From the NCBI GenBank assembly GCA_027026255.1, contig JALVOT010000017.1, positions 177,670-241,669 on the forward strand: 64,000 nt of DNA, given 5' to 3'. Numbering within the stretch: the first letter of the stretch is position 1; the number at the start of each line of letters is the position of its first letter. The stretch is from a candidate division WOR-3 bacterium. Lineage in GTDB: Bacteria > Hydrothermota > Tepidihabitantia > SM23-42. The position numbers were made by a program, and so were the translations under genes. The notes beneath the pieces are model-generated. The model had not been told where the DNA came from, made no database searches, and saw nothing but the letters and a program-made list of their open reading frames with translations. Below are positions 1,976 to 21,210 of this stretch, one piece after another.

Positions 1976-1991
1976 AACCAGAAAAGAGAAA

Positions 1992-2026
1992 AGGGGCAGG
2001 ATAGAAAATCCTGCCCCTTTTTTTTC
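1992..2026. terminator. Bidirectional intrinsic terminator between convergent genes.
   Basis: AGGGGCAGGAT-agaaa-ATCCTGCCCCT followed by T8. The same hairpin has an A-tract on the other strand. Confidence 0.8.
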
Positions 2027-2040: not shown

Positions 2041-3840
2041 TCAGTGCGTAACCACCACAGTCCTGGATACCTTCTTCTCTGGTGCCTGAAGCAGCACAAA
2101 ATAGGTTCCATTGGCAAGATTGCGGGTAGAAAGATTAACAGAATATGTCCCGGTATTACGATAACCCTGGTCAATCGTCCTTACCTGACGGCCGGTAACA
2201 TCATAGAGATTCAATACTATATTTCCGGAATGTGCAATATTATAAGAAATTGTTGCACAGCCAGAAACCGGATTCGGATATAATGTCAACGAAGTATTAA
2301 CCGGGCGATCAGCCTGACTATGTTCAGCAATACCCATAAATGTATGTTTATCAATAACCCAGCAGCGCACCGGATTTTCCGTACGCTCACTTTCTGGTCC
2401 CCCAACACAAGCACCCGCATCCTTATCCTCGACATAGGTAATAAAGATTGAATCGTTAACAAGTAAAGGACAGACGGTTGCATAATCCTCATCATCACAG
2501 GCACCTGCAGCACCACCCGGGGTCCGGGTATTGGTCAGATTCACATATTTTGCCCAGGTTAAACCATTATCCGTTGAATAAGAAGCATATAACTCACCAT
2601 TAAAATTGGCCGGCTTTCCAACTGTATCTGAATAATCTGTGGTATCATCCTGGCCGTGCCATAAACAGAAAAGGGTATCACTATTCGGGTCAACAATAAG
2701 CTGAGGCTGATCCGCCGCGGTCCTCCAGCCACCAGCCCTATCAAACTCATCAAGCCACCAGCCTTCAGGCTGATTATAATAGGTGCTTGGACTGTTTACC
2801 ACACTAATCGTATTGGAAACCTCATCCCAGTGGAAAATCTTGGCGCGGTCAAACACATGAAGAGTATCATTATCAATATGAGCCTGATAAGCACCCCAGA
2901 CAATATGCAGATGGTCATTGCGGTCAAAGACCCCATTTACATCACAGTATGCCCAGGTTGCAGTATCAGAAACTTGAGAAAAAGGTTTATAATGGGTAAG
3001 ATTCACCGGATTACCCCAAGTCACCCCGCCATCAGTAGAGAGCACATAATAAACATCATTATTAATTTGATCATTATTAGAATCAACTATCTCAATATAT
3101 TGAGTCCAGATATACACCACCTTATTAGAACCGGAGTTCTGTGAGGCACGGACAAATTGAGAAACGGTGCCACAGGAATCAACTGCCATTTTCTCGGTCC
3201 AGGAATTACCTGCGTCTGTCGTCAACCAGAGATGCTGGTCTGCACCTCCATATTTAGCACTTACCATCACGATATTGCCGTTATTTGCCACCGCAATATA
3301 AGGCCAGATCTGGTCTGTTGCAGATGGAGTCTTGGGATCATTGGGCCAGGTTCCCCAGAGATTACCTCCATCAATGTCAATCCAGGAAAAATATCCCTGA
3401 CCGGCATCATAATGGTAGGCGATAACTGTGCGCTGGGTATCGGCGTTGGCATCCCTGGTTATATCAAGCTGGACATAACCGGACCAGGATGGAGAACCCG
3501 GGGTCTCACCAAAATATGTGCCATCCGTATATCGAGCATTCCAGCCACAAAAACGTTTGTTCGCTGCTGAATCCTGTGCCATCCAGTTGATATGCGCCTG
3601 ACCTTTATCATCCACATCAATACGCTGGCCAAAAGAACCGTTTGCCTGATAGTCATACCAGGTAGTTCCTATCTTGTCACCGGGACTGCGTGAACCACCA
3701 AGATACGGTATCGGGTTACCATTAGCAATCCTCTCATTACCAATCAGTTTCTGATACGGTCCCCCACCTTTTATAACCAGACTAAACCCCATTGTAGCAA
3801 CTATTGCTACAACCATCAGTATTTTGCCCATATCCTTCAT
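2041..3840 (-). CDS. Secreted BNR/Asp-box repeat protein (sialidase-like fold) with a T9SS C-terminal sorting domain.
   Basis: 599-aa ORF with an N-terminal signal peptide. BNR motifs are STDGGVTW, YSTDNGLTW and TTDAGNSW. The C-terminus resembles a Por-secretion CTD (GTYFVLLQAPEKKVSRTVVVTH). Confidence 0.65.
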   Translation of the reverse strand: MKDMGKILMVVAIVATMGFSLVIKGGGPYQKLIGNERIANGNPIPYLGGSRSPGDKIGTTWYDYQANGSFGQRIDVDDKGQAHINWMAQDSAANKRFCGWNARYTDGTYFGETPGSPSWSGYVQLDITRDANADTQRTVIAYHYDAGQGYFSWIDIDGGNLWGTWPNDPKTPSATDQIWPYIAVANNGNIVMVSAKYGGADQHLWLTTDAGNSWTEKMAVDSCGTVSQFVRASQNSGSNKVVYIWTQYIEIVDSNNDQINNDVYYVLSTDGGVTWGNPVNLTHYKPFSQVSDTATWAYCDVNGVFDRNDHLHIVWGAYQAHIDNDTLHVFDRAKIFHWDEVSNTISVVNSPSTYYNQPEGWWLDEFDRAGGWRTAADQPQLIVDPNSDTLFCLWHGQDDTTDYSDTVGKPANFNGELYASYSTDNGLTWAKYVNLTNTRTPGGAAGACDDEDYATVCPLLVNDSIFITYVEDKDAGACVGGPESERTENPVRCWVIDKHTFMGIAEHSQADRPVNTSLTLYPNPVSGCATISYNIAHSGNIVLNLYDVTGRQVRTIDQGYRNTGTYSVNLSTRNLANGTYFVLLQAPEKKVSRTVVVTH

Positions 3841-3855
3841 TTTGCCTCCTTTCTT

Positions 3856-6465
3856 TTATTTCAAAAAAACTGCCTTTCTCGCCACGGCCTTGCTGTCTCT
3901 TTTCAGTTGTATAAAATAGACGCCGGCATTTTCGAGTGAAAAACTATATTCATAAGCGCCCGGGCTGAGTACCTTCTGAATAAAATCAATCTGCCTTCCT
4001 GATATATCGTAGATATCCAACCGTATTTTACCGCGAGATTTTAAAGTAAATCCAACCTTAAGAATTCCTTTCTGAGGTGAAGGAATATTAAGAGAGGCGG
4101 AAATCCCTTTTTCTTTATAGGCTTCAATTCCTGTAAGATATTCACGAATTAGATAGACACCGTCAGATTCATCTGCAAGATAAAGCATACGGCCGCTACA
4201 GGCGAGATTGACAGCATTGCCAAAAGACTCCATATATCCAATTTCCCTTGGATTTAAGGAGTCTGAAACATCAATCATCCTGACACCTTCAAAACCATCA
4301 GCCACAAAAAGACCATCACTCAGGAGCACCTTATTGGCAGTGCCCGGCGTATCAAGAGTGCCAAGCTGTTCCGGATTTACAGGATCGGAAATATTAAATA
4401 TCTTTATCCCGCGTCCACCGTCAGCCAGGTATATTAGATTATTTTTTAATACCAGACCCCGGGTAATGCCGTTTGTATTATAAAAACCGATCTCAACCGG
4501 AGCGGTGGGATCTGCGACATTTACCACCCTTAATCCCTTAGTTCCATCTGCCACAAAAGCAATGGTATCTCTTATTACAACATCATAGGCCTGTCCCGGA
4601 CTATCATACCTGCCTTCAAGTGATGGATTAGACGGCCTGGAAATATTAATTATAACAACCCCTGAAATTCGGCAGGCAGCATAAGCATAATTTCCGGAAA
4701 CGCAAATCGCCATTGGCTGGTCAACATTTAATCCCAGTTTTCCCACCTGGGCTGGATTGGTTGGACTGGAAATATCAATTACCCGAAGAGTATCTTCCTG
4801 GTCCAGGACATAAAGGTAAGAACCCGATGCCGCCAGGGCGACACTATTTCCTGGCAGAGCCAGATGATAGACCTCATCAGGCAGACTTGAATCAGAAAAG
4901 TCTGCAACCAATAAACCATCGGTTCCGTTCACAATATATGCATAATTCCCTGACAACACAAGTGCCTTTGCTGAATGAGGCAAACCATAGTGTCCAACCA
5001 GTTTCAGATTCGAACTATGTGCCGGAAAAGTTGATTGAATTTTATTAAAACTTCCGTCTGCAGCGAGCTTCTGATTTGAACTATTTAATCCGGCAATATT
5101 AATTCGGAATACAGAATCTATATCTGGAGCTACCCACAGATATTTACCCGTATTAGAAACATTATCCTTAATAAGCGTCCAGTTAAGAGAATCATAACTC
5201 GAAGATTGCCTGCCAATTGAATACCAGATTTTCAGATGATCAATATCCGAACCAGTTGTTGACCATTTAATCCAGTATTTCAGGTCCTTAAAAACAAATC
5301 CACCCCGGGGAAAATCGAGAAATATATTATCATTCACTGAACCGCCCGGGACAAATGTGACCACATAGTCATTAGAATATGTCCCCTGATAGTAAGTCCA
5401 GAGATTCCAGTACGGCTCGCCGCTCCAGCCCCAGGTAGTATGAACCTGCACAAATGTATCAGGCGGCTCAATCAGATAGCCTATTCCGGTCAAACAATGA
5501 TGGATGAATTGATTTCCATAATAATAATATGAAACCGCCCAGACGCAGGGTCTTCCTCCATCAATCTCATCCTTTAACCAGGAAAAGACCCATTGATTCC
5601 AGGAACTACCCTGGGATGATGTTAAGCTGTTGCAGGAATAGCCATTTACAGAATTAGCGACTGTTATCATACCGGGTTTTATATTGCTGATATAGGTTCC
5701 CCCGGTCATTGAATCGGTATTCATTGCCAGGGCAAGTTCCTTGGCAACATTAACACATTCCTTCCACTGGCTATAAGGTGGGTCATAACGGGTAAAATAG
5801 AAATCAACAAGCCGACCATAGCCGCGCGAATCCCAGTATCCGAAAATCATTGATGCCGATGTCGGACAACAGCCATAAACCCAGTCCTGGAAAGGAACTC
5901 CGGAAATATAAGCCGAATCCTGACGGGTTGTAAATGATGGAGTATTAAAATATCTTTCCCATTTTTCTCTGGTTAAAAGTTCAAGCGCTTTATCAGATTT
6001 AATCCGGGATTTTAAATCCCCTTTATCTATTTTTTTAAGTGTGGCTGAATTAATTAGAATTTCTTTATCCTGACATTTAAATCCGCAATATTCTTCACCC
6101 GGACCAAAATAGTATACCCTTTGAAATTGAGGTTCCATTTTAAATTCTTTCCTTGCCGCATTCAAAATTTTATCATAACCGGTTTTAAATCCTGGTAAAT
6201 CAAATGAAATCTCCCCAATCGGGGATGATGTCCATCTTGCACCCATTACAATATTTATAATATGATTATTAATGTTTTTATAAATCATCGCATAAGCATT
6301 TGGTTTATCATCAATACCGTAATAGGTCACTATCTGGTCCAGTTGATAATTACCAAAGCGTTCATTAATGAATTTTTCAGAAAGCGCCTTAACTTTTCCA
6401 AAAGGGATGAAATCTGAAGCAAAACTTAAACAAAAAATCATCAACAGCATAACCGCCTTTTTCAT
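3856..6465 (-). CDS. Peptidase C10 (streptopain/PrtT-like) domain fused to an LVIVD-repeat beta-propeller and a T9SS C-terminal sorting domain.
   Basis: 869-aa ORF with a signal peptide. The active-site Cys region is GCCPTSASMIFGYWD (compare GCVATAxAQIMKY of C10 peptidases) and the downstream signature is VHTTWGWSGEPYW. Repeated GxYxYxxxxxxGLxVIDISxPxxP units are LVIVD-like. The C-terminal CTD is GVYFIQLKRDSKAVARKAVFLK. Confidence 0.7.
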   Translation of the reverse strand: MKKAVMLLMIFCLSFASDFIPFGKVKALSEKFINERFGNYQLDQIVTYYGIDDKPNAYAMIYKNINNHIINIVMGARWTSSPIGEISFDLPGFKTGYDKILNAARKEFKMEPQFQRVYYFGPGEEYCGFKCQDKEILINSATLKKIDKGDLKSRIKSDKALELLTREKWERYFNTPSFTTRQDSAYISGVPFQDWVYGCCPTSASMIFGYWDSRGYGRLVDFYFTRYDPPYSQWKECVNVAKELALAMNTDSMTGGTYISNIKPGMITVANSVNGYSCNSLTSSQGSSWNQWVFSWLKDEIDGGRPCVWAVSYYYYGNQFIHHCLTGIGYLIEPPDTFVQVHTTWGWSGEPYWNLWTYYQGTYSNDYVVTFVPGGSVNDNIFLDFPRGGFVFKDLKYWIKWSTTGSDIDHLKIWYSIGRQSSSYDSLNWTLIKDNVSNTGKYLWVAPDIDSVFRINIAGLNSSNQKLAADGSFNKIQSTFPAHSSNLKLVGHYGLPHSAKALVLSGNYAYIVNGTDGLLVADFSDSSLPDEVYHLALPGNSVALAASGSYLYVLDQEDTLRVIDISSPTNPAQVGKLGLNVDQPMAICVSGNYAYAACRISGVVIINISRPSNPSLEGRYDSPGQAYDVVIRDTIAFVADGTKGLRVVNVADPTAPVEIGFYNTNGITRGLVLKNNLIYLADGGRGIKIFNISDPVNPEQLGTLDTPGTANKVLLSDGLFVADGFEGVRMIDVSDSLNPREIGYMESFGNAVNLACSGRMLYLADESDGVYLIREYLTGIEAYKEKGISASLNIPSPQKGILKVGFTLKSRGKIRLDIYDISGRQIDFIQKVLSPGAYEYSFSLENAGVYFIQLKRDSKAVARKAVFLK

Positions 6466-6570
6466 AATAATCTCCTTAAATTGTTTCCCGAAAAAAACAA
6501 TTTTTTCTCCATAAACCCCCTGTTCTAATCGGGGTGTGAAGGTATTTTACCTTCACACCCCGGAATTTCC

Positions 6571-7686
6571 CTAAAATTCTATACTCAATCCAAGTCTATG
6601 CGTCGCCTTAAGAATTCCCTTATTCATATATGCATAATCAATACGAAACCCTGTATTACCGGTTTTCACATTAAACCCAACCCCGGCGGTAAGATTATTA
6701 AGCAGCCACTCGGTTTTATCACCCCAATTATAACCGGTTGTCTCATTCGTTGTGGTATCAATTATCGGTTTGCCACCCGTCATCGCCTTCACATAATCAA
6801 TATTCAAATACATCTTGTAACCTGCCCTTAAGAAAAATGTATTGAGATAGGCATATTCAAAACCGAGATTAATTGTTTCGTAATTATCATTAGGATGATT
6901 AAGGTCTAAATCCATTGTCAACCGGGATGACTCATTAGAAATAGGGTCAAATGCCAGACCAAATCGGAATATCAGAGGTAAAGGATACGGTGTGGTCTTG
7001 TAAGTACTCGGTATCGGTTCATAATCAAGTGGGGAATCTGGAAACGGATTTTCCGCAAACTCCAGGTTCCGACCGCTGAAACTTATATCCGAACCGAAGT
7101 TGCTCATTGCCGCAGCAATCTTAAGGCCTTTAAACCCGGTATTATAATGAATTCCAAAATCAGTTGCAATACCGGTTGCGGTCATACTCCAAACAATTTC
7201 CTGGACTCCCTTAATGGTTAATCCTGCTGCGAGTCGATCCGTGAACATTCGACCAAATGATATACCAACGGCAAAATCCGAAGCATTAAAATAAGTTCCT
7301 GTTCCGGTATCCTCACGAATGGTCGTATTGGGATTGTCAACCCCGGTAATCTCCATCTTTCCCATTGTTAATGCCGTCACACTTAATCCCATCGTTCCAA
7401 AATTACCCAGGGGCAAAGCTGCAGTCAGATAGTCATGACGAATATCCGCAATCCATTCATTATGCTGAAGACTTATCTGTCTCTTCTCAATTGTTCCCAA
7501 TCCAGCAGGATTCCAGTAGGTCGCTGAGGCATCATCAGCAATCGCAACAAATGCCTCGCCCATTGCTGCACCCCGACCTACACCAATCTTCAGAAACTGA
7601 GCACCTGAAGTCCCCAGTTTTGCAAAGTCAGCATAGAGGGGCAACATTAAAATCAAGAGTAGGCTGATGTATTTTATCCTTTTCAT
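6571..7686 (-). CDS. PorV/PorQ-family outer-membrane beta-barrel protein (T9SS-associated).
   Basis: 371-aa ORF with a signal peptide. The N-terminal motif is AKLGTSGAQFLKIGVGRGAAMGEAFVAIADDASATYWNPAGL. The C-terminus ends in aromatic residues (EF). Confidence 0.55.
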   Translation of the reverse strand: MKRIKYISLLLILMLPLYADFAKLGTSGAQFLKIGVGRGAAMGEAFVAIADDASATYWNPAGLGTIEKRQISLQHNEWIADIRHDYLTAALPLGNFGTMGLSVTALTMGKMEITGVDNPNTTIREDTGTGTYFNASDFAVGISFGRMFTDRLAAGLTIKGVQEIVWSMTATGIATDFGIHYNTGFKGLKIAAAMSNFGSDISFSGRNLEFAENPFPDSPLDYEPIPSTYKTTPYPLPLIFRFGLAFDPISNESSRLTMDLDLNHPNDNYETINLGFEYAYLNTFFLRAGYKMYLNIDYVKAMTGGKPIIDTTTNETTGYNWGDKTEWLLNNLTAGVGFNVKTGNTGFRIDYAYMNKGILKATHRLGLSIEF

Positions 7687-7695
7687 TCTAACCTC

Positions 7696-10662
7696 CTATC
7701 GAACAACAACAAATTTGCCAACCTGTTCACCGACATCAGATTGAATATGGAAGACATAAACACCGCTCGCAACCAGCTGATGATTCTCACTCAATAAATC
7801 CCATTCCTCATCGCCGCCTAAATCATTAATCACACCACCACCCGAACTCGCCTTATGACAAATTACCTTAACCAACTCACCATTCAAATTGAATATCCGT
7901 ATCGTACAATTCGAAGGCAAATTGATAAACCGCAACCGACGCCGTAAACTCGACTGCTGCCACTCGTTATGAATAATATACGGATTAGGCACCACCTTGA
8001 CATGTAAACTAAAAGTATCCACCGACGCAAATTCCCCGGGCACCGAATGAATCCTGAACAGCCCATTTGCCATCACCGGACTAAACTCCGTATTCGCATG
8101 GACCACCCAAACATCACCACTCCGCGGCAACTCATCTCCCGGCATCAACGGTCCGCCTCTTTTCAACCCCACGAGACCACCGCATATATACAGGAACTTC
8201 GTATTATACTGCGGAGCCGGACTACCATGCAACACCAGTGTATCTGAAAAACCGCGCAGCGACAGAAAACTCCAGCCATCCGCTAAAGTATCATTCAAAG
8301 GATCACCAGAAACCGGTCGATAAGGAGTAAAGTTAATCGTATCCCCGGCATTTAAATCAATCACCACCACACTGTTTGCGGTATTGCTCCCCGCTGTCGA
8401 AAACCAGTGCACCTCATAATCATTACCGCGATAAGGCCAAAAATTCCAATAATTGGCCCAGGCACCAGGTGTAGAAGGCACCAATAAACTCTCGGGATAC
8501 GAACCGGTCTTCACTTCAATCGCCTCAAATATCGACTTATCGGTCGGCAACAAATCCCGGACAAAATGTAAGCCTATACTCAAACCATTATAAACCGGAA
8601 ATGTATGCGGCACATCCAACGAATCATTAACACCAACCACCTTAATACTATCAATATGACCACCATCCGCATCCTCTAAATATCCCTTATAAAGAGGAAC
8701 AACCACAACCACCGTATCTGTATCATGAATAATTCTCACAATGCTCCAATCAATCGGCATAAGCTCCAACTGAATAATATCATCTTTCATCTCAAGCGGA
8801 TTCACAATACTCACATTAATACTATCTCCAAGCAGCTCATTACCATAAATCCGTTCCAACGAATACTCACCAGGAACTAAATTCGCCGGTTCACGCCTCG
8901 GCACAACCGGCACTCCACTCAAACCGCTCTCAAACCAGATTGGACGACCATACTCCTGACCCGACGAATCCACATCCTTTACTAAATTATAATCATAAGA
9001 AGTCACCGCATAATAATAAGTAAACCCATTGCGCACATCCTCATCCACATAAGAATGAACCAAACCCTTATCATCCGCATATATCCTTATCGATTCCGGT
9101 GCGGTCGTATCTTCAAAAACAATGTTGTTAAACAGGTCATAACGGCCAAGCAAGCTCCAGTCTCCGGTCTTCCCGGTCAAACTCTTCCAGACTCCATAAC
9201 CCTCAAAATCATACTGACGGTAAAATGTATCGGTTAAAGGCGTTCCCGGAATACTCACAATATCATAATAAGGATCAGGAGTATGTTCAGGGGCATTATC
9301 CCAAACCAGGGTCACCCGGGCATCACCGGGCACACAGGTTAAAGTCGGGGGCGGGGGCGGACCAGGCAGTAACCAGTTCTTATCATAGATAAATTGACAG
9401 GTATTATCAATATTTACCAGGGCGGTATCCGGGGTGCTGTATGTATCATGCCAGTAGGCAAGAATAATGCCGACCAGAATCGTCGCGACTGAATCCGGAG
9501 CAATGTCAAATGGTCCGCTGCACTGTAAAAACCTCTGATCATCTGGACCTGATGGTGCAGTGTCTACAAACGGCTCATAAACCATCGTCTTAAAGTTATA
9601 ACCGGCAAGGGTCACATACCGCTCATTATCCTTAGTCGGCTCAAGACTAAGTGTGAAACGTTTGAATGCGGTCATACCGAGCTGCGGTATCTCTGAAGGG
9701 TCGCGCCAGTCCGGGGTCCCATCAAGGTCAACATCCCACATTGAATCCGGCAGATTTGTTACATAATAAGAACTATCCCGTTCATACTGGTCAGGAATCC
9801 CGTCCTCATCCTTGTCCATATTCTCTTTTAAATCATAAGGACTCTGTAAATAATCATAACCGATTGTCCCGGGAAATTCACTCCAGCCGGCTTCTTTTGT
9901 ATCCTGCCATTGATAACCGAGGTTATCAACCCAGAGCGATTCTCCATCAACCACATACCATCGACCTACAATACCGGCGATGCGGTCATTGGCGCTTCCA
10001 GGGGACTCATTACCGATATCATTATCAGCACAGACCCCGAAGTAGCATTTTCGCAGGGTATCGCCTGAAACATTTCTCAACTCATATTTGATGAATATTA
10101 TATCCTGTGTTGTGCTCAAATTCCAGGCATAAACCGTTTGATAAATCACCAGACCAATCGGCCTTGTATCTCCCGGGTTATGTTGCGTTTTATCAAGGTC
10201 ATTGATTACACACCAGGAATCCTGATGAGATTTATTTTTCTGCGGCGGTTCTGCAGTGGTCCAGCCTTCAACCGGCGGGGGCCAGGTCTCAGGATACATA
10301 AAAATAATCGCATTGGGATCACTCTGGGACATACCTTTATCACCGGGGACAAATTCAGTCTCAGCGCCGGATGGACCATAACCGATTGAAACCAAGGTAT
10401 CACCGCTTGTTTGATCAATCGTTCCGAACCAGGGTCCAGCACCAAATACATAACTGTGGCGAGAACCTTTGGGCCACCATAGACCTGCTTTTTCACCCTC
10501 ACGCTGGCCAAACTTCCCAAAGTTTGAGACACACATCTCAACCTGGTTCACATTATGAACTTTTATCTGGAACTCACGACCTGCATCAGGATTTATAACC
10601 GCAGGTCGGGCTAAAGCAAAGACTACAATTGTCAAGATTGGAATTAAAACCTTCTTCATCAT
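7696..10662 (-). CDS. Large secreted protein with thrombospondin-type-3-like Ca-binding Asp-rich motifs and a T9SS C-terminal sorting domain.
   Basis: 988-aa ORF with a signal peptide. It contains DKDEDGIPDQYERD and DVDLDGTPDWRD. The C-terminal CTD is GVYVFHIQSDVGEQVGKFVVVR. Confidence 0.6.
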   Translation of the reverse strand: MMKKVLIPILTIVVFALARPAVINPDAGREFQIKVHNVNQVEMCVSNFGKFGQREGEKAGLWWPKGSRHSYVFGAGPWFGTIDQTSGDTLVSIGYGPSGAETEFVPGDKGMSQSDPNAIIFMYPETWPPPVEGWTTAEPPQKNKSHQDSWCVINDLDKTQHNPGDTRPIGLVIYQTVYAWNLSTTQDIIFIKYELRNVSGDTLRKCYFGVCADNDIGNESPGSANDRIAGIVGRWYVVDGESLWVDNLGYQWQDTKEAGWSEFPGTIGYDYLQSPYDLKENMDKDEDGIPDQYERDSSYYVTNLPDSMWDVDLDGTPDWRDPSEIPQLGMTAFKRFTLSLEPTKDNERYVTLAGYNFKTMVYEPFVDTAPSGPDDQRFLQCSGPFDIAPDSVATILVGIILAYWHDTYSTPDTALVNIDNTCQFIYDKNWLLPGPPPPPTLTCVPGDARVTLVWDNAPEHTPDPYYDIVSIPGTPLTDTFYRQYDFEGYGVWKSLTGKTGDWSLLGRYDLFNNIVFEDTTAPESIRIYADDKGLVHSYVDEDVRNGFTYYYAVTSYDYNLVKDVDSSGQEYGRPIWFESGLSGVPVVPRREPANLVPGEYSLERIYGNELLGDSINVSIVNPLEMKDDIIQLELMPIDWSIVRIIHDTDTVVVVVPLYKGYLEDADGGHIDSIKVVGVNDSLDVPHTFPVYNGLSIGLHFVRDLLPTDKSIFEAIEVKTGSYPESLLVPSTPGAWANYWNFWPYRGNDYEVHWFSTAGSNTANSVVVIDLNAGDTINFTPYRPVSGDPLNDTLADGWSFLSLRGFSDTLVLHGSPAPQYNTKFLYICGGLVGLKRGGPLMPGDELPRSGDVWVVHANTEFSPVMANGLFRIHSVPGEFASVDTFSLHVKVVPNPYIIHNEWQQSSLRRRLRFINLPSNCTIRIFNLNGELVKVICHKASSGGGVINDLGGDEEWDLLSENHQLVASGVYVFHIQSDVGEQVGKFVVVR

Positions 10663-10669
10663 CTACCTC

Positions 10670-13429
10670 CTAAAATCCAATGCCGATACCCAAACGCATT
10701 CTGAATGGGCCATTATGATTCCTGGGGTCAATATAGTAATCATTTCGCGCCGCAATATATGCCCGCTTCTGTTCATAAGGATTAATCAGACCATCGTGAT
10801 TATAATCAGCCTGGGGTGAGTAATGAGAACTCGCAATCGATATATAACCGAATTGCCCGATTGACGGTTCCGGGTCACCATGATTATCCGGCTCGCCCGT
10901 GGTTGAATAAACATCAATCACCTGGTCCGTATTGAACAGATTATATATCATACTCTCTAAGGTCAGATTCAACGGACCCAATTTGATTAACCTGCTGAAA
11001 CTCCAGTCGACATTCCAGTATCCAGGCATCCGCGCTGAATTTTCATCACCCAAACGATTTCCCCTCAAATCTTCAGGGGTATATGGATGACCAGAATGGA
11101 ATGAAAAGACCCAGGAACTATTCAGATTCTGTAAAGGGATAAAGAAAAAGTCCTCGGGTAAACTCAAATCGAAATTGGCGTTGACAATATGGCGCTCATC
11201 AAAATCGAGCCAGTAGTCGATAACCGGCGGTTCCACACCATAATAGTAGTTGTCATAATACCATTCACTTGCATAGGCAGCAGTGCCTTTGGCGAACTGA
11301 AGTGTATAAGTAATACCCAATGCCCACATATTCGACATACGCTTGCTAAGGGTAAATTCGAAGCCCTTCACATTCCCGTAATCGACATTCTTGAACTGGA
11401 AATAAGAAGTAGGCAGTGCAATCACCTCACGGATCTGGGAAAGGTCATAGATATCCTTAAAATAGGCGCTGAAACTGAACGCCATATCATCGGTAAGCTG
11501 GTCTTCCATACCAAATTCATACTTTACTGTTTTCTGCGGCTTTATAAAAACATTTCCGATAACTGCATTACCACGCGAAATCAGGGCTCGAATCACCGAG
11601 GTATCGGTTGAACTATACATATTATCGAGTGCCGGAAGCTGGAAATAGTGGCCATAATCAAAACGGAACTTCATCCGATCCGTAACCGGCAGAGAAAATC
11701 CCAGTCGCGGTGAAATTTTATAACTGCCCGGGGCATTAACCAGTGTATCATTCAAAAAATCACTTGGTTTCTTGAATGTGAATGCCTTGGGGTCGAAATA
11801 ATCAAATCGGAATCCGACACGGGCAATAAGCCCTTCAAAATCCATCTTATCCTGAATATATCCGGCAAGTTGAATCGGTGAACGGTCATAGTAATCCCAG
11901 AATGGATTGGATACCCAGGGAAGATTATTATCAAAGAATTTCATTCGGTATTGAATTACATCAAAACCGGACTTGAATTCATGAATTTTGCCCACTGAAT
12001 GGCTGATGTCGGCTCGAACCTGAAGGTTCTGATTCCACCAGTAGCGCCAGACCCGGTAATCTCCATAGGTATAATACATTCCTTCCACACCATAGGGGTT
12101 GTTGCGTAATGCTGCAACACCGCGGTTTGTGTATTGGGTATGATATTGCATCATACTATCAATTACAATATGGCGAATCATTGAATCCGGAGTTGCATCA
12201 TCAAGAAGTAAAGGAATCAGATGCTCTGCACAGAAACGGTAATCCTCATACCACGCCCGACCGGTTGAGTCTTCCCAGGCATAATCCCGATTTCCATAAG
12301 CCCTGTTATAATGGGTCCAGCCTCCTTTTACCGATACCAGAGTCTGGGCAGTTAACATATAATTAAAAGTCGCCGAGAGAATGGAATTTTTAATTCGACT
12401 CATCGGCATATGGTTAAAGTATTTCAGATTACCGCTTCTCCAGTAGACAAACTGCTCGCGGGAATTATGTGCCGATAAAGTAATCTTTCCCTTGGCATTG
12501 GGAAGATGATATGAGAACTTTGCCTGACTACGATAATCCATCCTTGGTGAAGGCACCCGATAATATGCCTCTACCCAGGAATCGGTAAGCATCAATTCGC
12601 CGGAAAGAAAATAGCGAAAGCGCGGAAGTTTTGGTACCGGACCACCCAGAGAAAGGTTATAGAGGTTATATCCATAGTTCAACTTATTTTTCCAGGCATC
12701 CACTGCTGAGAAGACCTCATCGGTCAAATATCGAAAATTGCCGGCGAATTTTGGTCCGCCTTCTTTGGTCACGATATTAACGACTCCGGAAAGTGCATCT
12801 CCATATTCTGCATCAAACCCACCGGTTTCAACATCAACCTCCTCAACCGCATTGGGACTGATTCGTGCCGATTGATATCCGGTATTCGGCACCTTGGTGA
12901 TAATACCGTCGACAAAATAGGCAACCTCATTACCGCGTCCACCCCGGATATGGGTACCAAGACCGCTCTGGACAACACCTGCCTGCAGGGTGATTACCTG
13001 GTTAATCGTCGTCACCGGAAGTCGCTCCATCTCTTTTGCCGTCACCGATCTTCGTGTGTGCACCTGGTCTCGCACAATTATTTCGCGCTCCGCCTCCACT
13101 GTAACACCTTTAACCGTAATCACCGTTGGAGTTAATTTGAAATTAAGTGCTGTAGTTTGATCTGTATTTACTACAACATTTTTGTAAGTATAGGGATCAT
13201 AACTTATGTATGATGCAGTAACCCGATATGTTCCGGCCGGAACATATAAAATTACAAACTCACCATTCTCGTCGGTAGCTGCACCCAGTTCACTCCCTTC
13301 GATAATTACATCTGCACCGATAAGGGGTTCCCCGGTCTCTTTATCGATAACCCGACCGGTGATCCTGCCAAATTCACCGGCAAAGAGGAAAACCCCGGCA
13401 ATAAGTAGACCAATTATTATCTTTTTCAT
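10670..13429 (-). CDS. TonB-dependent receptor, SusC/RagA-like, with an N-terminal carboxypeptidase-regulatory-like domain.
   Basis: The likely start is MKKIIIGLLIAG (a signal peptide). The CarbopepD_reg-like segment is GRITGRVIDKETGEPLIGADVII...ENGEFVI. A plug-like region follows, then a long beta-barrel ending in a C-terminal Phe. Confidence 0.6.
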   Translation of the reverse strand: MKKIIIGLLIAGVFLFAGEFGRITGRVIDKETGEPLIGADVIIEGSELGAATDENGEFVILYVPAGTYRVTASYISYDPYTYKNVVVNTDQTTALNFKLTPTVITVKGVTVEAEREIIVRDQVHTRRSVTAKEMERLPVTTINQVITLQAGVVQSGLGTHIRGGRGNEVAYFVDGIITKVPNTGYQSARISPNAVEEVDVETGGFDAEYGDALSGVVNIVTKEGGPKFAGNFRYLTDEVFSAVDAWKNKLNYGYNLYNLSLGGPVPKLPRFRYFLSGELMLTDSWVEAYYRVPSPRMDYRSQAKFSYHLPNAKGKITLSAHNSREQFVYWRSGNLKYFNHMPMSRIKNSILSATFNYMLTAQTLVSVKGGWTHYNRAYGNRDYAWEDSTGRAWYEDYRFCAEHLIPLLLDDATPDSMIRHIVIDSMMQYHTQYTNRGVAALRNNPYGVEGMYYTYGDYRVWRYWWNQNLQVRADISHSVGKIHEFKSGFDVIQYRMKFFDNNLPWVSNPFWDYYDRSPIQLAGYIQDKMDFEGLIARVGFRFDYFDPKAFTFKKPSDFLNDTLVNAPGSYKISPRLGFSLPVTDRMKFRFDYGHYFQLPALDNMYSSTDTSVIRALISRGNAVIGNVFIKPQKTVKYEFGMEDQLTDDMAFSFSAYFKDIYDLSQIREVIALPTSYFQFKNVDYGNVKGFEFTLSKRMSNMWALGITYTLQFAKGTAAYASEWYYDNYYYGVEPPVIDYWLDFDERHIVNANFDLSLPEDFFFIPLQNLNSSWVFSFHSGHPYTPEDLRGNRLGDENSARMPGYWNVDWSFSRLIKLGPLNLTLESMIYNLFNTDQVIDVYSTTGEPDNHGDPEPSIGQFGYISIASSHYSPQADYNHDGLINPYEQKRAYIAARNDYYIDPRNHNGPFRMRLGIGIGF

Positions 13430-13440: not shown

Positions 13441-14478
13441 TTACTCTACCCTGACAGGAATCAACCATACAACCGCACTATATCCCTTATTCGGGGTAAC
13501 ATAGTAATACGAATCCTTTGCAACCGCTTCAATATACAGATTTTCAATTCCCTGTCCAGTAATCACAAAACTTCCTGTTCCATCGACCAATTGCACTCTT
13601 TTCTGACCACCCAATGATACAAAGTAAAAATAATCATTTTGCAGCTCAGCGGGGGATATGCTAACCCTGGCAAACAAAGTTTCATTCGCCGGATAAGTTA
13701 ACAAAGAATCTACAGCGCGAAGTCTATTCATTGCGTGACCGGTGTAGGTAGTATCATAACTCGAATACCATACGGTATCAGAAATACCCAAATTCTCGTT
13801 ATAAAAAACTACATTATAAATAGATGCCACAACACCACCCCGATTAGGGAAATAATAGATTCCATATGAGACCCTTTTCAAAACCCATTCACGCGGTTCA
13901 ATAAGATTATTTACACTATCCCTTTTCGGCTCCAGAAAGATCAATCTTGTTCCTTCGCCAACGATATTCTTGGTCTGGTATGCCGTACCCGGACCGGGGT
14001 TTATTATCGTATCCATTGTCTTCAGCTTCATAGCGAGTGTTTCGCCGGTGCCAGGATCAATGATTACACTATCATAGTGCCCGACATATCTAATGTCCTC
14101 ATGCATCTTGGAAATTACACTAAATGTATCCCACAGATAAACCGTGCAGGTAGTATCCTTGGCATACCAGAAATCAGCGAAACGGCTGGAATCACTGATT
14201 GACAGTGCACAGCTATCAATATGCTGCTTTACGAGCGGAGAATCAACACGAAAATAACTGTCAACACCAGGAAAATCAACCGAGGGCATCGTAAACGGTA
14301 TATAGTTTTCAACAAATTGATCGACTGTATTAAGGAATTCAGGATGGGCATCAAGCTGAGCTTGAATCAGTGAATCATCTTGCGGTGTTCCGTTATAGAA
14401 TCCCTCTGGTGGTTCATTGCCGCAGGTAATAAATAACACACCCGCACCTACCAAGAGGCTCAGAAGATATCTCTTCAT
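13441..14478 (-). CDS. Lipoprotein of unknown function.
   Basis: The start is chosen at MKRYLLSLLVGAGVLFITC (signal peptide plus lipobox Cys). The ORF track's longer N-terminus would overlap the upstream gene. Confidence 0.5.
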   Translation of the reverse strand: MKRYLLSLLVGAGVLFITCGNEPPEGFYNGTPQDDSLIQAQLDAHPEFLNTVDQFVENYIPFTMPSVDFPGVDSYFRVDSPLVKQHIDSCALSISDSSRFADFWYAKDTTCTVYLWDTFSVISKMHEDIRYVGHYDSVIIDPGTGETLAMKLKTMDTIINPGPGTAYQTKNIVGEGTRLIFLEPKRDSVNNLIEPREWVLKRVSYGIYYFPNRGGVVASIYNVVFYNENLGISDTVWYSSYDTTYTGHAMNRLRAVDSLLTYPANETLFARVSISPAELQNDYFYFVSLGGQKRVQLVDGTGSFVITGQGIENLYIEAVAKDSYYYVTPNKGYSAVVWLIPVRVE

Positions 14479-14582: not shown

Positions 14583-15197
14583 TTATGGCGAACGAAGATT
14601 AAATGTCACGGGAAACGCCAATCGGACTGGAACCGGCTTATCCCGCTGTTTTGCAGGACTCCATCGGGTCTTTCTCGCTGCTGCAATAGCGGCCTCGTCC
14701 AGTAATGGGTTGCCGCTCGATTTCAGAATCCTTGCGTCGGTCACGCTTCCATCGATACCGACAATAATCATAAGAATAACTTTCCCCTCAATGCCGGCTT
14801 TCCTTGCCATCTCAGGGTATTTTGGTTTCACCGGTTTGATAAGCTTTGGTTTAACCTCCACCCGGGCATAAGGAACAACCTCAATCTCGGGACCGGTAGG
14901 AACTGTCCGAATAATATCTTCTTTAAACTCTGTTGCGGCAATCGTCTCCACCGCCTCTTCTTCAGCAACCTTTGACTCCGCCTCAACCGCAACCTTGGGT
15001 CGCTCCTTTGGAGGTGGTTCCTCATATTTATCAATCTCGGCGGAGATCTCTTCAATCATCGTCACCACTTCATGTTTCAATTTATATGGGGTAGGTTCAG
15101 AATAAGGCACAAATGCAAACAGCAAAATAAAAATAACAAGACTGGCAAATATTCCGGTGCGCAGATATACCCCATATAAGAGTTTATGATCACGCAT
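14583..15197 (-). CDS. tonB: TonB-like energy transducer with a C-terminal TonB domain.
   Basis: 204-aa ORF with an N-terminal TM helix and a Pro/Glu/Lys-rich linker (EEPPPKERPKVAVEAE). The C-terminal region is KPKYPEMARKAGIEGKVILMIIVGIDGSV. Confidence 0.65.
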   Translation of the reverse strand: MRDHKLLYGVYLRTGIFASLVIFILLFAFVPYSEPTPYKLKHEVVTMIEEISAEIDKYEEPPPKERPKVAVEAESKVAEEEAVETIAATEFKEDIIRTVPTGPEIEVVPYARVEVKPKLIKPVKPKYPEMARKAGIEGKVILMIIVGIDGSVTDARILKSSGNPLLDEAAIAAARKTRWSPAKQRDKPVPVRLAFPVTFNLRSP

Positions 15198-15199
15198 TC

Positions 15200-15616
15200 T
15201 TACCTCCTGAATTCAGTGGCAAAAGTAATCTTAAATGCCTTCGCCTCTTTCAGTTGATCAAGCACCTTATCAACCGTTCCATAATTCACCACTTCATCAA
15301 CATTCAGGATTGTAATAAGTTCTGGATTCTCCAAAACCTTGGGCCTCATCTTATCAGCAATCACCTGAGGTGAGATTAAATTATCATCAATATATATCTT
15401 ACTGTTATTATCAATCCAGATATGGCTGACATTTCTGCGCATTAAAATTCGTTCTGTAGACATCGCCTGCGGCAAACGGATGTTTAGATGGAGTCGGGTC
15501 GCCCTGAAAACCGTCGTCACCATAAAAAAGAGGATAAGCAAAAATGCGATATCTGCTGTCGAAGCCGTAGGGATTTCCGGTGTCTGTGTAAAGCGTCTAA
15601 TAATACTCTTTCTCAT
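15200..15616 (-). CDS. exbD: ExbD/TolR-family protein, second copy.
   Basis: 138-aa ORF with a single N-terminal TM (IAFLLILFFMVTTVF). Its size and topology are typical of ExbD. Confidence 0.65.
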   Translation of the reverse strand: MRKSIIRRFTQTPEIPTASTADIAFLLILFFMVTTVFRATRLHLNIRLPQAMSTERILMRRNVSHIWIDNNSKIYIDDNLISPQVIADKMRPKVLENPELITILNVDEVVNYGTVDKVLDQLKEAKAFKITFATEFRR

Positions 15617-16089
15617 TATTTCTTCTCCCCACTGGCCGGAATAAGACTTATCTTCTTGGCTCGAACCTCCCGGCCATCAGGCATCGTTACCTTACACAAT
15701 TTAATCTGATCCAGAACCGCAATCATATTTTTATATGGAGCCTCTTTACTGGCACGCAGCGAAACAACCAGCAGGGTATCCCGTTCACGCAGACGTTCTT
15801 CAACAATTTGCCGTATCTTATCATAATCATCCGATTTTATAATTTCATCATAGCCTACGGTCTTTACCTTCACCTCACCAGCCGGGTTGATTGCAATCGT
15901 AACAATATTTTCCTTCACCACCTTAACCTTCTGTTCCTTTTTTGTCTTTTCTGGCAAAAGCATCTTCAGACCTTTATCCCGGGTAAACACCGTGGAGGTA
16001 AGAAAGAATATCAAAATCAAAAACGCCACATCCCCCATTGATGCGGTAGGGATAGCGGGCGGATTTTTTTTCTTTTCTTTTAATTTCAT
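15616..16089 (-). CDS. exbD: ExbD/TolR-family protein, first copy.
   Basis: 157-aa ORF with an N-terminal TM (MGDVAFLILIFFLTSTVF). Translationally coupled to its neighbours. Confidence 0.7.
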   Translation of the reverse strand: MKLKEKKKNPPAIPTASMGDVAFLILIFFLTSTVFTRDKGLKMLLPEKTKKEQKVKVVKENIVTIAINPAGEVKVKTVGYDEIIKSDDYDKIRQIVEERLRERDTLLVVSLRASKEAPYKNMIAVLDQIKLCKVTMPDGREVRAKKISLIPASGEKK

Positions 16090-16093
16090 TATT

Positions 16094-16813: not shown

Positions 16814-16865
16814 AGAGTAAAAAACCTCATATTATCACCGATTTTTTGACTTAAGTCTTGTTCGG

Positions 16866-21209: not shown

Positions 21210-21210
21210 A

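Follow-up and report, generated by a model that had tools for sequence, protein, structure and literature searches.

A fixed outer-membrane gene triad of a TonB-dependent receptor, a CTD protein and a PorV-like barrel in WOR-3 and other bacterial lineages

Introduction

PorZ and PorU of Porphyromonas gingivalis are the two T9SS proteins whose C-terminal domains (CTDs) are retained, and each docks by that domain on a cognate barrel of the PorV/PorQ family, PorZ on PorQ and PorU on PorV (PMC10202324). Type B CTD cargo, as in SprB-SprF, has an uncleaved CTD and an adjacent gene for a PorP/SprF-like barrel that serves surface anchorage (PMC9143113, PMC10202324). In Myxococcus, the TBDT Oar, which carries a CarboxypepD_reg N-terminal extension and a Plug, is needed for secretion of the PopC protease in a TonB box-dependent manner (PMC6434023).

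Here we describe a locus of an uncultured WOR-3 bacterium built around a fixed triad of genes, in the order TonB-dependent receptor (TBDR), CTD protein, PorV-like barrel. We found no published description of this triad in the literature, and the TBDR/CTD-protein/PorV-like module appears to be new to it. The locus amounts to a conserved three-gene outer-membrane module, followed by ordinary secreted enzymes.

Results

Gene order and unit boundaries

In the window, which is the whole 64-kb stretch of DNA analysed, all ORFs of the preliminary description were confirmed at the coordinates below, all on the minus strand. Consensus promoter and terminator scans suggest one putative 10-gene unit, in the order exbB-exbD-exbD-tonB, a lipoprotein gene, the TBDR gene, the gene for a 988-aa protein, the PorV/PorQ-family barrel gene and two cargo genes. 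Scores are in bits, each against its family cut-off.

16787..16814, minus: promoter-like match to the sigma-70 consensus (TTGACA-16-TATAAT, 12/12), ~55 nt before exbB
16094..16732, minus: ExbB/TolQ-family proton channel, 212 aa (PF01618, 91.1 vs 22.9)
15616..16089, minus: ExbD/TolR paralog 1, 157 aa (PF02472, 67 vs 25.4)
15200..15616, minus: ExbD/TolR paralog 2, 138 aa (PF02472, 76.9 vs 25.4)
14583..15197, minus: TonB, 204 aa (PF03544, 86.3 vs 24.6; TIGR01352, 76.5 vs 27.1)
13441..14478, minus: lipoprotein, 345 aa from MKRYLL, lipobox ...LFITC|GNE
10670..13429, minus: TBDR, 919 aa from an MKKIII start (CarboxypepD_reg PF13620, 73.4 vs 32.3; Plug PF07715, 42.6 vs 23.9)
7696..10662, minus: 988-aa secreted multidomain protein with signal peptide, supersandwich, FN3/Ig-like domains and family-specific CTD
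7699..8007, minus: CTD of the 988-aa protein, type A but divergent, residues ~886-988 (hhalign)
6571..7686, minus: PorV/PorQ-family outer-membrane barrel, 371 aa, ending ...LSIEF (NF033709, 216.8 vs 90)
3856..6465, minus: 869-aa accessory T9SS cargo (LVIVD, 131.4; Por_Secre_tail, 28.7 vs 27; TIGR04183, 26.9 vs 23)
2041..3840, minus: 599-aa accessory T9SS cargo (Por_Secre_tail, 43.0 vs 27; TIGR04183, 38.0 vs 23)
1989..2021, minus: intrinsic-terminator-like hairpin, 14-bp stem, 7 GC pairs, T-rich tail

The site at 16814-16787 was the sole 12/12 match when 15.6 kb were scanned for the consensus, and by that match it is a candidate promoter. The hairpin (2021-1989) lies 20 nt past the last gene's stop and between convergent genes, since a plus-strand gene ending at 1975 faces the cargo end of the unit. 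No riboswitch was found at the locus, hence no hint of a substrate from that side.

A Ton energiser had been placed beside the receptor, and this held: TonB_C, two ExbD and MotA_ExbB domains each scored above their cut-offs at 14583-16732. TonB has an N-terminal TM helix, a Pro/Glu/Lys-rich linker and a TonB_C domain, and ExbB is 72-97% identical among syntenic WOR-3 loci. The lipoprotein is specific to WOR-3, with C19, G20, N21, E22 and P23 invariant in 104 homologs. Its AF2 model is all-beta (pLDDT 87.2, pTM 0.82); searches gave no PDB match at E ≤ 1e-3, no known fold match and no Pfam or NCBIfam match.

The triad across phyla

The triad order is common to WOR-3, Hydrothermia, Latescibacterota, Gemmatimonadota, Zixibacteria, Calditrichota, Ignavibacteria/Melioribacteraceae and other Bacteroidota. 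In 17 WOR-3/Stahlbacteria loci the order is fixed and the spacing tight (7-10 nt in the window locus), and the order is kept at 23-42% identity in Latescibacterota, Gemmatimonadota, Bacteroidota MAGs, Hydrothermia, Ignavibacteriales and Zixibacteria. A search started from the barrel instead recovered the triad in Calditrichota, where two modules stand in tandem with one PorV-like gene each, and in Melioribacteraceae. Intergenic gaps are 7-100 nt across ~8 phylum-level lineages. The E-values, together with a gene order conserved in ~30 independent loci, exclude chance. Across WOR-3 the TBDR is ~66% and the PorV-like barrel ~74% conserved, which would fit a housekeeping envelope machine as well as a nutrient-specific system.

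The TonB-dependent receptor

The TBDR comprises a signal peptide, a CarboxypepD_reg N-terminal extension, a Plug and a barrel ending ...GIGIGF, with VITVKGVTVEAE as candidate TonB box. The earlier assignment of a CarbopepD_reg TBDR directly upstream of the secreted proteins is thus borne out by its CarboxypepD_reg and Plug scores; its label as "SusC-like" is not, since TIGR04056, the SusC/RagA-class model, gave 60.2 bits against a cut-off of 368.25 and no SusD is present. Identity is 62-87% within WOR-3 and 25-42% in other phyla, and the WOR-3 ortholog at locus L002 matches PF00593. No characterised TBDT is close to the window TBDR, so there is no pointer to a substrate. A paralog of the TBDR, 51% identical and without partner genes, occurs in the same genome.

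The 988-aa protein and its tail

Across the compared loci, the gene directly downstream of the TBDR always encodes the CTD protein. The 988-aa protein begins with a ~430-aa beta-supersandwich with Asp-rich Ca-type loops and has no Pfam domain above threshold. Foldseek matched its AF2 model (pLDDT 82.2) to supersandwich N-domains of GH94/GH15/GH116, and also to PorZ (5m11) and PorU (6za2). Homologs fall into 8387 representative clusters at E ≤ 1e-3.

The preliminary description had three consecutive secreted proteins, all ending in Por-secretion domains. The 599-aa and 869-aa proteins do pass the CTD models, but the 988-aa protein alone stays below the cut-offs (TIGR04183, 15.9 vs 23; Pfam, 12.3 vs 27), and its homology appears on profile comparison, where hhalign aligned the tail to canonical type A CTDs with a probability of 98.2% (E 3.2e-14). 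Nor are the three genes consecutive, as the PorV-like gene lies between the first and the second. Motifs of the 988-aa tail are VVPNPY, F.NLP..CTIRI, GGDEWWDL, VASGVY and GKFVV[IV]R. The tail of this family matches that of PorZ in 33/40 members, that of PorU in 10/40 and TIGR04183 in 14/40.

We saw this CTD subtype only on the 988-aa family, in which its identity (65-82%) exceeds that of the body (48-63%); across triads the middle gene keeps it while the body ranges from 607 to 1347 aa. This pattern suggests a retained docking domain and not a disposable signal. Extra full-length 988-aa paralogs without an adjacent TBDR or PorV-like gene occur at five WOR-3 loci (L005, L010, L015, L017, L037). 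Because partnerless 988-aa and TBDR paralogs exist, the pairing of TBDR, 988-aa protein and PorV-like barrel is not strictly one-to-one.

The PorV-like barrel

A PorV/PorQ-like barrel had been proposed among the cargo genes, and the protein at 6571-7686 passes that general family model (NF033709) clearly. It is not a canonical shuttle, because it fails the equivalog cut-offs of PorV (58.5/250), PorQ (83.2/220) and PorV2 (84.9/325) alike. Its sole PDB sequence match is F. johnsoniae PorV (6h3i_F, E 1.5e-4). Triad barrels form their own subfamily, with cross-phylum members scoring 111-241 bits and non-triad paralogs 48-52; further PorV-family paralogs are present in WOR-3.

Downstream cargo genes

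The 869-aa cargo has a signal peptide, a marginal C39-like cysteine-peptidase domain (Peptidase_C39_2: 22.4 for the whole protein and 24.6 for the N-terminal half, cut-off 24), LVIVD beta-propeller repeats and a type A CTD at 3871-4083. Many WOR-3 loci, though not all, have its gene after the PorV-like one. Its body is 40-75% conserved and its CTD 23-55% or undetectable, the reverse of the 988-aa protein. The 599-aa cargo has Asp-box (SxDxGxTW-like) motifs, with BNR matching below threshold only, and a type A CTD at 2053-2283. Only in L003 and L006 does a close ortholog (49-71% identity) come after the locus; the matches in L016 and L025 are all remote (21-28%). Both genes are variable add-ons, which several WOR-3 loci of otherwise matching synteny lack (L002, L004, L014), so the three CTD proteins, treated as equivalent in the preliminary description, are not: the 988-aa protein belongs to the deeply conserved triad. 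What remains of the proposed dedicated secretion and uptake locus is the co-oriented set of T9SS-type cargo, PorV-family barrel, TBDR and its own Ton motor, but not the receptor class or the equivalence of the CTD proteins.

Discussion

We favor, at a probability of roughly 45%, an importer driven by Ton, the surface binding subunit of which would be exported through the T9SS and stay anchored to a cognate PorV-like barrel by an uncleaved tail. The TBDR would be a gated channel energised by the ExbB-ExbD2-TonB of its own unit. The 988-aa protein would be its surface partner, with a supersandwich and an Ig-like stalk suited to polymer binding, and would pass the outer membrane in the manner of a T9SS substrate. 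This export route is assumed, as the window yielded no core T9SS genes. Its conserved CTD would be kept and would dock on the barrel encoded directly downstream, much as PorZ docks on PorQ and PorU on PorV; the PorV-like/CTD pair would therefore replace the lipid anchor of SusD/RagB-type partners. TBDR, 988-aa protein and barrel would then be physically associated, and the substrate, a peptide or a glycan, would presumably move inward. The 869-aa (C39-like peptidase and LVIVD propeller) and 599-aa (Asp-box) proteins may be T9SS cargo of the usual cleavable kind, co-expressed in this lineage, that probably processes the substrate extracellularly.

Several observations count in favor of the importer, among them the fixed and tightly spaced triad order, the strongly conserved tail with its PorZ and PorU matches, and the separate subfamily of triad barrels. 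A complete Ton set is co-oriented and apparently co-transcribed with the TBDR, which keeps its Plug and N-terminal extension. The 988-aa model has a predicted carbohydrate-binding-type supersandwich and Ig-like domains without a recognisable catalytic fold, and triad neighbors in other lineages are peptidase genes (S51, M24, C39-like) or a CBM48 cargo gene. Against it, the matches to the PorZ/PorU tails are weak (best E 4.3e-5), neither a riboswitch nor a close characterised TBDT hints at a substrate, the partnerless paralogs loosen the pairing, and the high conservation of TBDR and barrel in WOR-3 would suit a housekeeping envelope machine too.

It is doubtful, though conceivable, that the parts are co-regulated and physically independent, with the barrel serving T9SS shuttling or attachment in general, the TBDR as an ordinary co-expressed importer and the 988-aa protein as a further surface cargo, for example an adhesin or a coat protein. 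Such independence would agree with the barrel's match to the general family model, with CTD cargo often following the PorV-like gene (the 869/599-aa genes of WOR-3; L063, 1236 aa; L069, 357 aa; L082, 630 aa) and with the multi-copy state of the 988-aa family, as is often the case in surface/adhesin families. However, co-regulation alone hardly explains an order kept so tightly over so many lineages. The two Calditrichota modules each having their own PorV-like gene, the failed equivalog models, the other PorV-family paralogs of WOR-3 and a CTD subtype confined to the middle-gene family, under stronger constraint than the body, all speak against it as well.

We consider it quite unlikely that the Ton-driven TBDR is instead an Oar-like exit channel for the adjacent CTD protein, and perhaps for other CTD cargo, with the PorV-like barrel receiving and holding what emerges. 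In such a scheme the module would do in compact form, and with Ton power, what SprA-PorV-PorLM does in the T9SS. The CarboxypepD_reg extension and Plug are common to Oar and the window TBDR (PMC6434023), the TBDR is constantly directly upstream of the CTD protein, and a Ton set lies in the unit here and at one Gemmatimonadota triad locus (L056). Core T9SS families had no match among the scanned window ORFs (Pfam, all scanned; NCBIfam, the source of the PorK/L/M/N and SprA equivalog models, 30; a few short ORFs were left out of the scans), and the 64-kb window and the fetched loci showed neither a SprA-sized ORF nor a core T9SS gene. However, the same genomes also encode numerous ordinary type A CTD proteins and additional PorV-family paralogs, as is typical where a full T9SS is present, and the extra 988-aa paralogs have no adjacent TBDR. 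The window TBDR also had no match to the Oar-type barrel PF25183 at E ≤ 0.01, a folded ~100 kDa protein would be a tight fit for a TBDT lumen, and secretion by way of Oar stands as a lone precedent.

The Agl/Glt apparatus of Myxococcus, with its TolQR-like motors and TonB-like proteins, is a model for another reading, to which we give little credence: a surface machine driven by a Ton-type motor for adhesion, motility or envelope maintenance and not import, with the triad as its outer-membrane platform. The conserved genes upstream of exbB (a DUF6754 set, a PATAN/DUF4388 protein and small membrane proteins) would supply its inner-membrane and cytoplasmic parts. More than 15 WOR-3 genomes share in synteny the whole 17-gene stretch that runs from DUF6754 through PATAN and four unknown genes as far as the PorV-like gene, and the conservation of TBDR, barrel and ExbB (~66-87%) exceeds that of typical substrate-specific uptake loci. 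Nonetheless, a perfect consensus promoter-like site separates the upstream genes from exbB, these genes are not linked to the triad outside WOR-3, no motility-family domain was detected, and the upstream unknown proteins had no PDB or Pfam match. Lastly, PorV is itself a member of the FadL-like barrel class, and a FadL/TodX-type channel for hydrophobic molecules beside the TBDR, unrelated to CTD binding, would suit the Pfam scores of the barrel (UPF0164, 30.6 vs 21.4; Toluene_X, 24.3, below 29.7), but it is very improbable given the far higher PorV/PorQ family score, PorV as the only PDB sequence match and the invariable pairing of the barrel with a protein bearing a conserved T9SS-type CTD.

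Comparison with known systems

Like SprB-SprF, the triad pairs a T9SS substrate gene cargo-specifically with a neighboring barrel gene; unlike it, the CTD aligns with type A, the barrel is of the PorV/PorQ family and not PorP/SprF, and a TBDR is part of the module. The likeness to Myxococcus xanthus Oar-PopC is a PF13620 and Plug TBDT with its own neighboring Ton system, tied to a specific secreted protein (PMC6434023). The two differ in that the window TBDR has no detected Oar-type barrel signature, and PopC has neither a CTD nor a PorV-like receiver.

With PorZ-PorQ and PorU-PorV of P. gingivalis the triad shares a CTD that matches the PorZ/PorU tails, the Foldseek hits to 5m11 and 6za2, and an adjacent barrel gene. 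However, the 988-aa body is a supersandwich with Ig-like domains and not the propellers of PorZ or the C25-like peptidase of PorU, and the barrel falls below the PorV and PorQ equivalog cut-offs. The triad pair is always linked to a TBDR, unlike the T9SS attachment complex, and its CTD would be retained by analogy.

With SusCD/RagAB of Bacteroidota it shares a CarboxypepD_reg-type TBDT beside a surface-exposed partner and secreted degradative enzymes, a logic of capture, processing and import. It differs in a TBDT that fails the SusC/RagA model (60 vs 368 bits), in a partner that bears a CTD and has a barrel anchor of its own, not a SusD/RagB lipoprotein, in the dedicated exbB-exbD-exbD-tonB set of the window operon, and in a distribution mainly outside the class Bacteroidia.

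Gene layout of the operon

Ten genes, from exbB to the gene for a 599-aa protein, all occupy the minus strand, and their positions agree with those first reported.

Genes of the operon (window coordinates; TBDR, TonB-dependent receptor; CTD, T9SS C-terminal domain)
16094-16732, minus strand: ExbB (PF01618 91.1, above cut-off)
15616-16089, minus strand: ExbD (PF02472 67.0, above cut-off)
15200-15616, minus strand: ExbD (PF02472 76.9, above cut-off)
14583-15197, minus strand: TonB (PF03544 86.3, above cut-off)
13441-14478, minus strand: 345-aa lipoprotein (LFITC|GNE) without family
10670-13429, minus strand: TBDR
7696-10662, minus strand: 988-aa protein without Pfam domain
6571-7686, minus strand: 371-aa PorV/PorQ-family barrel
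3856-6465, minus strand: 869-aa protein with C39-like peptidase domain, LVIVD repeats and CTD
2041-3840, minus strand: 599-aa protein with Asp-box motifs and CTD

Intergenic gaps inside the unit are mostly 0–15 nt, the largest being about 100 nt. The region's sole 12/12 match to the sigma-70 consensus precedes exbB at a short distance (16814-16787), and a terminator-like hairpin with a 14-bp stem follows the last gene (2021-1989). Because these consensus matches bracket the ten genes, the sequence suggests a single transcription unit. The G+C content of the locus is the same as that of the remainder of the window, and no riboswitch was found in the window at Rfam gathering thresholds. The preliminary description placed a Ton energiser beside the secretion and uptake locus, and this was borne out: ExbB, both ExbD proteins and TonB pass their Pfam cut-offs, which accounts for every element of a Ton energising complex (ExbB, ExbD and the TonB C-terminal domain).

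The lipoprotein is specific to WOR-3, and its CGNEP start does not vary. AF2 modelled it confidently (pLDDT 87, pTM 0.82) as a protein of very long beta-hairpins that carries an Ig/PKD-like domain at its C-terminus. The model had no fold match in the PDB at E ≤ 1e-3, so the fold may be new, and it offered no clue to function.

The receptor

Both the N-terminal CarboxypepD_reg extension and the Plug domain (42.6 vs. a cut-off of 23.9) score above curated cut-offs, as expected of the CarboxypepD_reg-type TonB-dependent receptor originally proposed. The PF00593 barrel model was not reported for the window protein and was reported for its orthologs in three of the fetched homologous loci (L002, L078 and L082). 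Partial barrel matches to TIGR01786 cover residues 441-725, and a candidate TonB box, VITVKGVTVEAE, was picked by eye. The Oar-type barrel model PF25183 had no match in this receptor at E ≤ 0.01; a faint match was seen only in a TBDR paralog from the same genome and in L082. No close characterised TBDT was found for the window receptor.

The receptor had also been called SusC-like, and here we disagree. The SusC model TIGR04056 scores 60.2 vs. 368.25, with the match confined to the N-terminal 200 residues, and a search with Pfam and NCBIfam models for a SusD/RagB-family neighbour found none, the actual neighbours being the family-less lipoprotein and the 988-aa CTD protein. With the SusC model below its cut-off and SusD missing, we rejected a SusC/SusD reading.

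The scaffold carries a second TBDR some 6 kb outside the window, on the side of position 1 (locus L080, 2755-5544). It is 51% identical to the operon receptor and has the same N-terminal extension and Plug, and neither a CTD protein nor a PorV-like gene adjoins it.

Conservation of the gene order

We compared the window proteins by tblastn and blastp with 77 loci recovered with the 988-aa family. In 17 WOR-3/Stahlbacteria loci, the gene for the TBDR is followed on one strand by that for the 988-aa homolog (the middle protein) and then by that for the PorV-like barrel, with identities of 62–87%, 48–64% and 69–86%, respectively. At 23–42% identity, this triad recurs in Latescibacterota, Gemmatimonadota and Longimicrobiales, Hydrothermia, Ignavibacteriales, Zixibacteria and three ‘Bacteroidota’ MAGs; the order was also found on two further long contigs. 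A reverse search from the PorV-like side added Melioribacteraceae and Calditrichota, the latter with two tandem modules that each have their own PorV-like gene. The triad families span approximately eight phylum-level lineages, mostly uncultured, and cluster look-ups and name fields returned MAGs only, with no cultured or characterised carrier. Middle-protein and TBDR paralogs without partners exist, so the pairing of the two is not strictly one-to-one.

The second Calditrichota module adjoins the first (L081, 11569-18870). Its middle position is split into proteins of 330 and 692 aa, with the triad-type CTD on the 692-aa protein only.

Three records titled ‘chromosome’ (CP070664.1, CP070686.1 and CP070834.1, which hold loci L028-L031, L034, L036, L041, L043, L047, L050 and L059) have 100-N spacers every few kb, many of them inside 988-aa paralogs. 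Since these contig joins fall where the paralogs appear truncated, the truncations are assembly breaks, and we rejected gene loss at CP070664, CP070686 and CP070834.

The PorV-like barrel

The assignment of the 371-aa protein to the PorV/PorQ family was confirmed (NF033709, 216.8 vs. a cut-off of 90), and its relatives are labelled ‘PorV/PorQ family protein’ by their sources. It fails the equivalog models for PorV (NF033710, 58.5 vs. 250), PorQ (NF033711, 83.2 vs. 220) and PorV2 (NF052325, 84.9 vs. 325), and it is below the cut-off of the Pfam PorV model (PF19572, 17.6 vs. 27). The sole PDB sequence match is F. johnsoniae PorV (6h3i_F, E 1.5e-4). Triad PorV-likes from different phyla score 111–241 bits against one another and only 48–52 bits against other PorV-family paralogs, including one from a WOR-3 genome and one from the same Gemmatimonadota locus. 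On these scores, the triad PorV-likes are a distinct subfamily. A profile search from the PorV-like proteins retrieved at least 1279 relatives (clusters at 90% identity).

Cargo genes downstream of the triad

The region was first seen as a T9SS substrate cluster. The CTDs of its two cargo proteins do pass, that of the 599-aa protein clearing PF18962 (43.0 vs. 27) and TIGR04183 (38.0 vs. 23) and that of the 869-aa protein doing so by a narrow margin (28.7 vs. 27 and 26.9 vs. 23). However, the conserved unit is the triad, and the cargo genes vary. In many WOR-3 loci, though not all, the triad is followed by the 869-aa gene; clear 599-aa orthologs come after it in two loci only. In other lineages, the same position is taken by a NosD-like protein, a CBM48/X25 protein or a small CTD protein, and in some loci by a GWxTD-domain protein.

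The GWxTD-domain gene (PF20094) comes right after the PorV-like gene at L074 13770-15140, L078 13282-14679 and L079 13295-14773. These triad loci are from Ignavibacteriales and two other lineages, in which the protein may be a fourth component of the module.

Elsewhere in the window, a 963-aa gingipain-like protein (60484-63375, minus strand) combines a C25 propeptide, a Peptidase_C25 domain, a C25 Ig-like domain and a type A CTD, and is another T9SS-type cargo. We rejected its identification as PorU (NF033707, 46 vs. 420).

The middle protein and its tail

The 988-aa protein had been counted as a third protein ending in a CTD. Its tail alone stays below both cut-offs (TIGR04183, 15.9 vs. 23; PF18962, 12.3 vs. 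27), but it is still a type A homolog: a tail profile built from 17 sequences aligned over 83 columns with canonical type A CTDs taken from these loci (hhalign 98.2%, E 3.2e-14), so we regard it as a type A CTD that has diverged and has two inserts. The motifs VVPNPY, F.NLP..CTIRI[FY], WDL, VASGVY and GKF.V[IV][RK] recur in the tail across phyla. The last ~100 residues are always the same CTD subtype, which is confined to the middle-protein family, while the body ranges from 607 to 1347 aa and sometimes lacks the supersandwich described below. Across 15 syntenic WOR-3 loci, the tail is 65–82% identical and the body 48–63%, whereas the LVIVD cargo in those loci shows the opposite (body 40–75%, CTD 23–55% or undetectable).

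Of 40 family members, 33 have a tail that matches the C-terminal end of the PorZ model and 10 have one that matches that of PorU, all weakly (best E 4.3e-5); in 14 the tail matches the generic TIGR04183 (E < 0.01). Two proteins of the T9SS, PorZ and PorU, retain their CTDs and use them to bind PorQ and PorV, and such CTDs have been suggested, in a 2023 review, to be shielded from cleavage by cognate PorV-like barrels (PMC10202324).

No Pfam model covers the 988-aa family, which comprises 8387 representative clusters (50% identity) at E ≤ 1e-3 and 1166 at E ≤ 1e-30. Its homologs are labelled candidate division WOR-3 or Candidatus Stahlbacteria, and a 109-kb ENA metagenome scaffold has a gene identical to that of the window. 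The AF2 model (pLDDT 82.2, pTM 0.66) has four parts, running from an N-terminal beta-supersandwich of ~430 residues with Asp-rich loops, a carbohydrate-binding-type fold, through FN3/Ig-like domains to a C-terminal beta-sandwich. Foldseek retrieved the non-catalytic N-domains of GH94, GH15 and GH116 and YidC P1 (probability 1.0, whole-chain TM ~0.2), as well as FN3 arrays, PorZ (5m11) and PorU (6za2). We assign it no catalytic fold or enzyme family: all Foldseek matches were to non-catalytic supersandwich or Ig/FN3 domains, at this TM, and no HExxH motif was seen by eye. Sequence and hydropathy scans of the 988-, 869- and 599-aa proteins show signal peptide-like N-termini, a basic stretch followed by hydrophobic residues at ~3-21.

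A proposed surface subunit for a TonB-dependent importer

The locus contains a conserved triad that seems to be co-transcribed and has its own Ton motor. Its CTD is under constraint and specific to one protein family, its barrel belongs to a cognate subfamily, and the ordinary cargo downstream varies. Our preferred reading, to which we assign a probability of roughly 0.45, is that the middle protein is the capture subunit of a TonB-dependent importer, exported by the T9SS and held on the barrel by a CTD that it retains. It would leave the cell as a T9SS substrate, keep its CTD, dock on the PorV-like barrel beside the TBDR and serve the importer from the surface. The 869-aa (C39-like/LVIVD) and 599-aa (Asp-box) proteins would be helpers, either released or anchored in the manner of A-LPS. 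Hints of a substrate are few: triads of different lineages are flanked by peptidase genes (S51, M24, C39-like) or a starch-binding cargo gene, and the supersandwich is of a carbohydrate-binding type. Counting against this reading, WOR-3 genomes carry further full-length middle-protein paralogs with no TBDR or barrel next to them, and the genome of the window has the second, partnerless TBDR.

Alternatively, the parts would be independent and only co-regulated, with the barrel as a general shuttle. We consider this unlikely: the synteny is deep, Calditrichota has one barrel per module, the barrel fails the equivalog models, and the CTD subtype does not leave the middle-protein family.

Core T9SS genes and possible export

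No sprA/sov, porK/L/M/N (gldK-N), porU or porZ was found among the window ORFs scanned with Pfam, nor any core T9SS family among the 30 also scanned with NCBIfam, and the 80 fetched loci contain no ORF of 1500 aa or more. The protein of 689 aa at 36405-38474 (plus strand), in which repeated CarboxypepD_reg domains and PEGA are combined with an OmpA domain at the C-terminus, was rejected as the T9SS protein PorE, the match being weak and below the cut-off (94 vs. 600 bits).

The lack of core T9SS genes in these scanned ORFs and loci would fit an Oar-like role, in which the TBDR and its Ton set export the CTD protein. Oar of M. xanthus has an N-terminal extension and a Plug, has its own Ton system and is needed for PopC secretion (PMC6434023). 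The window receptor has the same extension and Plug, and the invariant order of TBDR, cargo and PorV-like barrel with an operonic Ton set suits a compact export device. The triad would then be a self-contained, TonB-powered apparatus to export and display proteins with the triad CTD subtype, perhaps type A cargo generally in WOR-3. The plugged TBDR barrel would be the translocon, ExbBD-TonB would stand in for the PorLM motor, and the substrate would be extracted and held by the PorV-like barrel. We rate such a device as rather improbable.

Genes upstream of the operon and elsewhere in the window

Within WOR-3, synteny reaches nine genes upstream of exbB. They encode a DUF6754 protein and three membrane proteins, then a PATAN/DUF4388 protein, two uncharacterised soluble proteins and two 4-TM proteins. 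These genes raise the possibility, for WOR-3, of a surface or envelope machine tied to them and driven by a Ton-type motor. This seems distinctly improbable, since linkage outside WOR-3 is limited to the Ton genes, and then only occasionally (L056), and the consensus promoter stands between the upstream genes and exbB. A FadL-type lipid channel, the remaining proposal for the barrel, is highly improbable.

The five genes directly upstream of exbB (16866-19762, minus strand), whose synteny extends to more than 15 genomes of WOR-3, encode the PATAN/DUF4388 protein (281 aa), the soluble proteins (227 and 194 aa) and the small 4-TM proteins (123 and 116 aa). The soluble proteins have no Pfam, NCBIfam or PDB match; a Roadblock/LC7-like identity was dropped for lack of support from Pfam and PDB profiles. 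Two paralogous four-gene sets that face each other flank the operon (window 91-1975, plus strand, and 19762-22913, minus strand; L080 8249-11502). In both, a DUF6754 gene precedes the genes for three polytopic membrane proteins of ~207–219, 287–289 and 204–213 aa. The two sets are 36–50% identical to each other and both are kept in other WOR-3 genomes.

Three further loci were noted. The gene at 54543-55271 (plus strand), of the geranylgeranylglyceryl phosphate synthase family (NF003198, 283.6 vs. 247; TIGR01769, 217 vs. 162), encodes an ether-lipid enzyme of archaeal type, here in the genome of a bacterium. A bifunctional fructose-1,6-bisphosphate aldolase/phosphatase is encoded at 51262-52350 (minus strand; NF041126, 594 vs. 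520). At 25863-27468 (minus strand), the gene for a T2SSE-family secretion/pilus ATPase (344 aa) comes after a separate one for an MshEN-domain protein (193 aa); a PAS histidine kinase and also a GAF-HD protein are encoded upstream.

Significance and relation to known systems

Each part is of a known class (TonB-dependent receptor, T9SS-type CTD, PorV-family barrel), and it is their fixed combination that would be new. The papers searched gave no description of such a module, which we call undescribed only provisionally because most subscription-journal papers lie outside the literature covered. The module is widespread, deeply conserved and mechanistically suggestive, with support in silico only. 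If the capture-subunit reading is true, bacteria without SusD-type lipoproteins give TonB transporters a T9SS-delivered surface subunit held non-covalently on a dedicated barrel, the PorZ-PorQ docking principle reaches past the attachment complex, and the annotation of “PUL-like” loci and “T9SS cargo” outside Bacteroidia would change. If the triad instead exports protein, it would be a second case of TonB-dependent protein secretion and might be related in evolution to the T9SS translocon. Under import and export alike, the CTD subtype and the barrel subfamily are sequence markers with which to locate modules.

The locus fails the cut-offs of the SusC, PorV, PorQ, PorV2 and PorU equivalog families and so lies outside each of them. 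In function it comes closest to the docking pairs PorZ-PorQ and PorU-PorV, to the pairs of type B CTDs with PorP/SprF, to the SusCD/RagAB transporters and to Oar-PopC. The SusD/RagB lipoproteins of Bacteroidia do the same capture job that we propose for the middle protein, but they are anchored by a lipid, whereas the anchor here would be a protein–protein contact.
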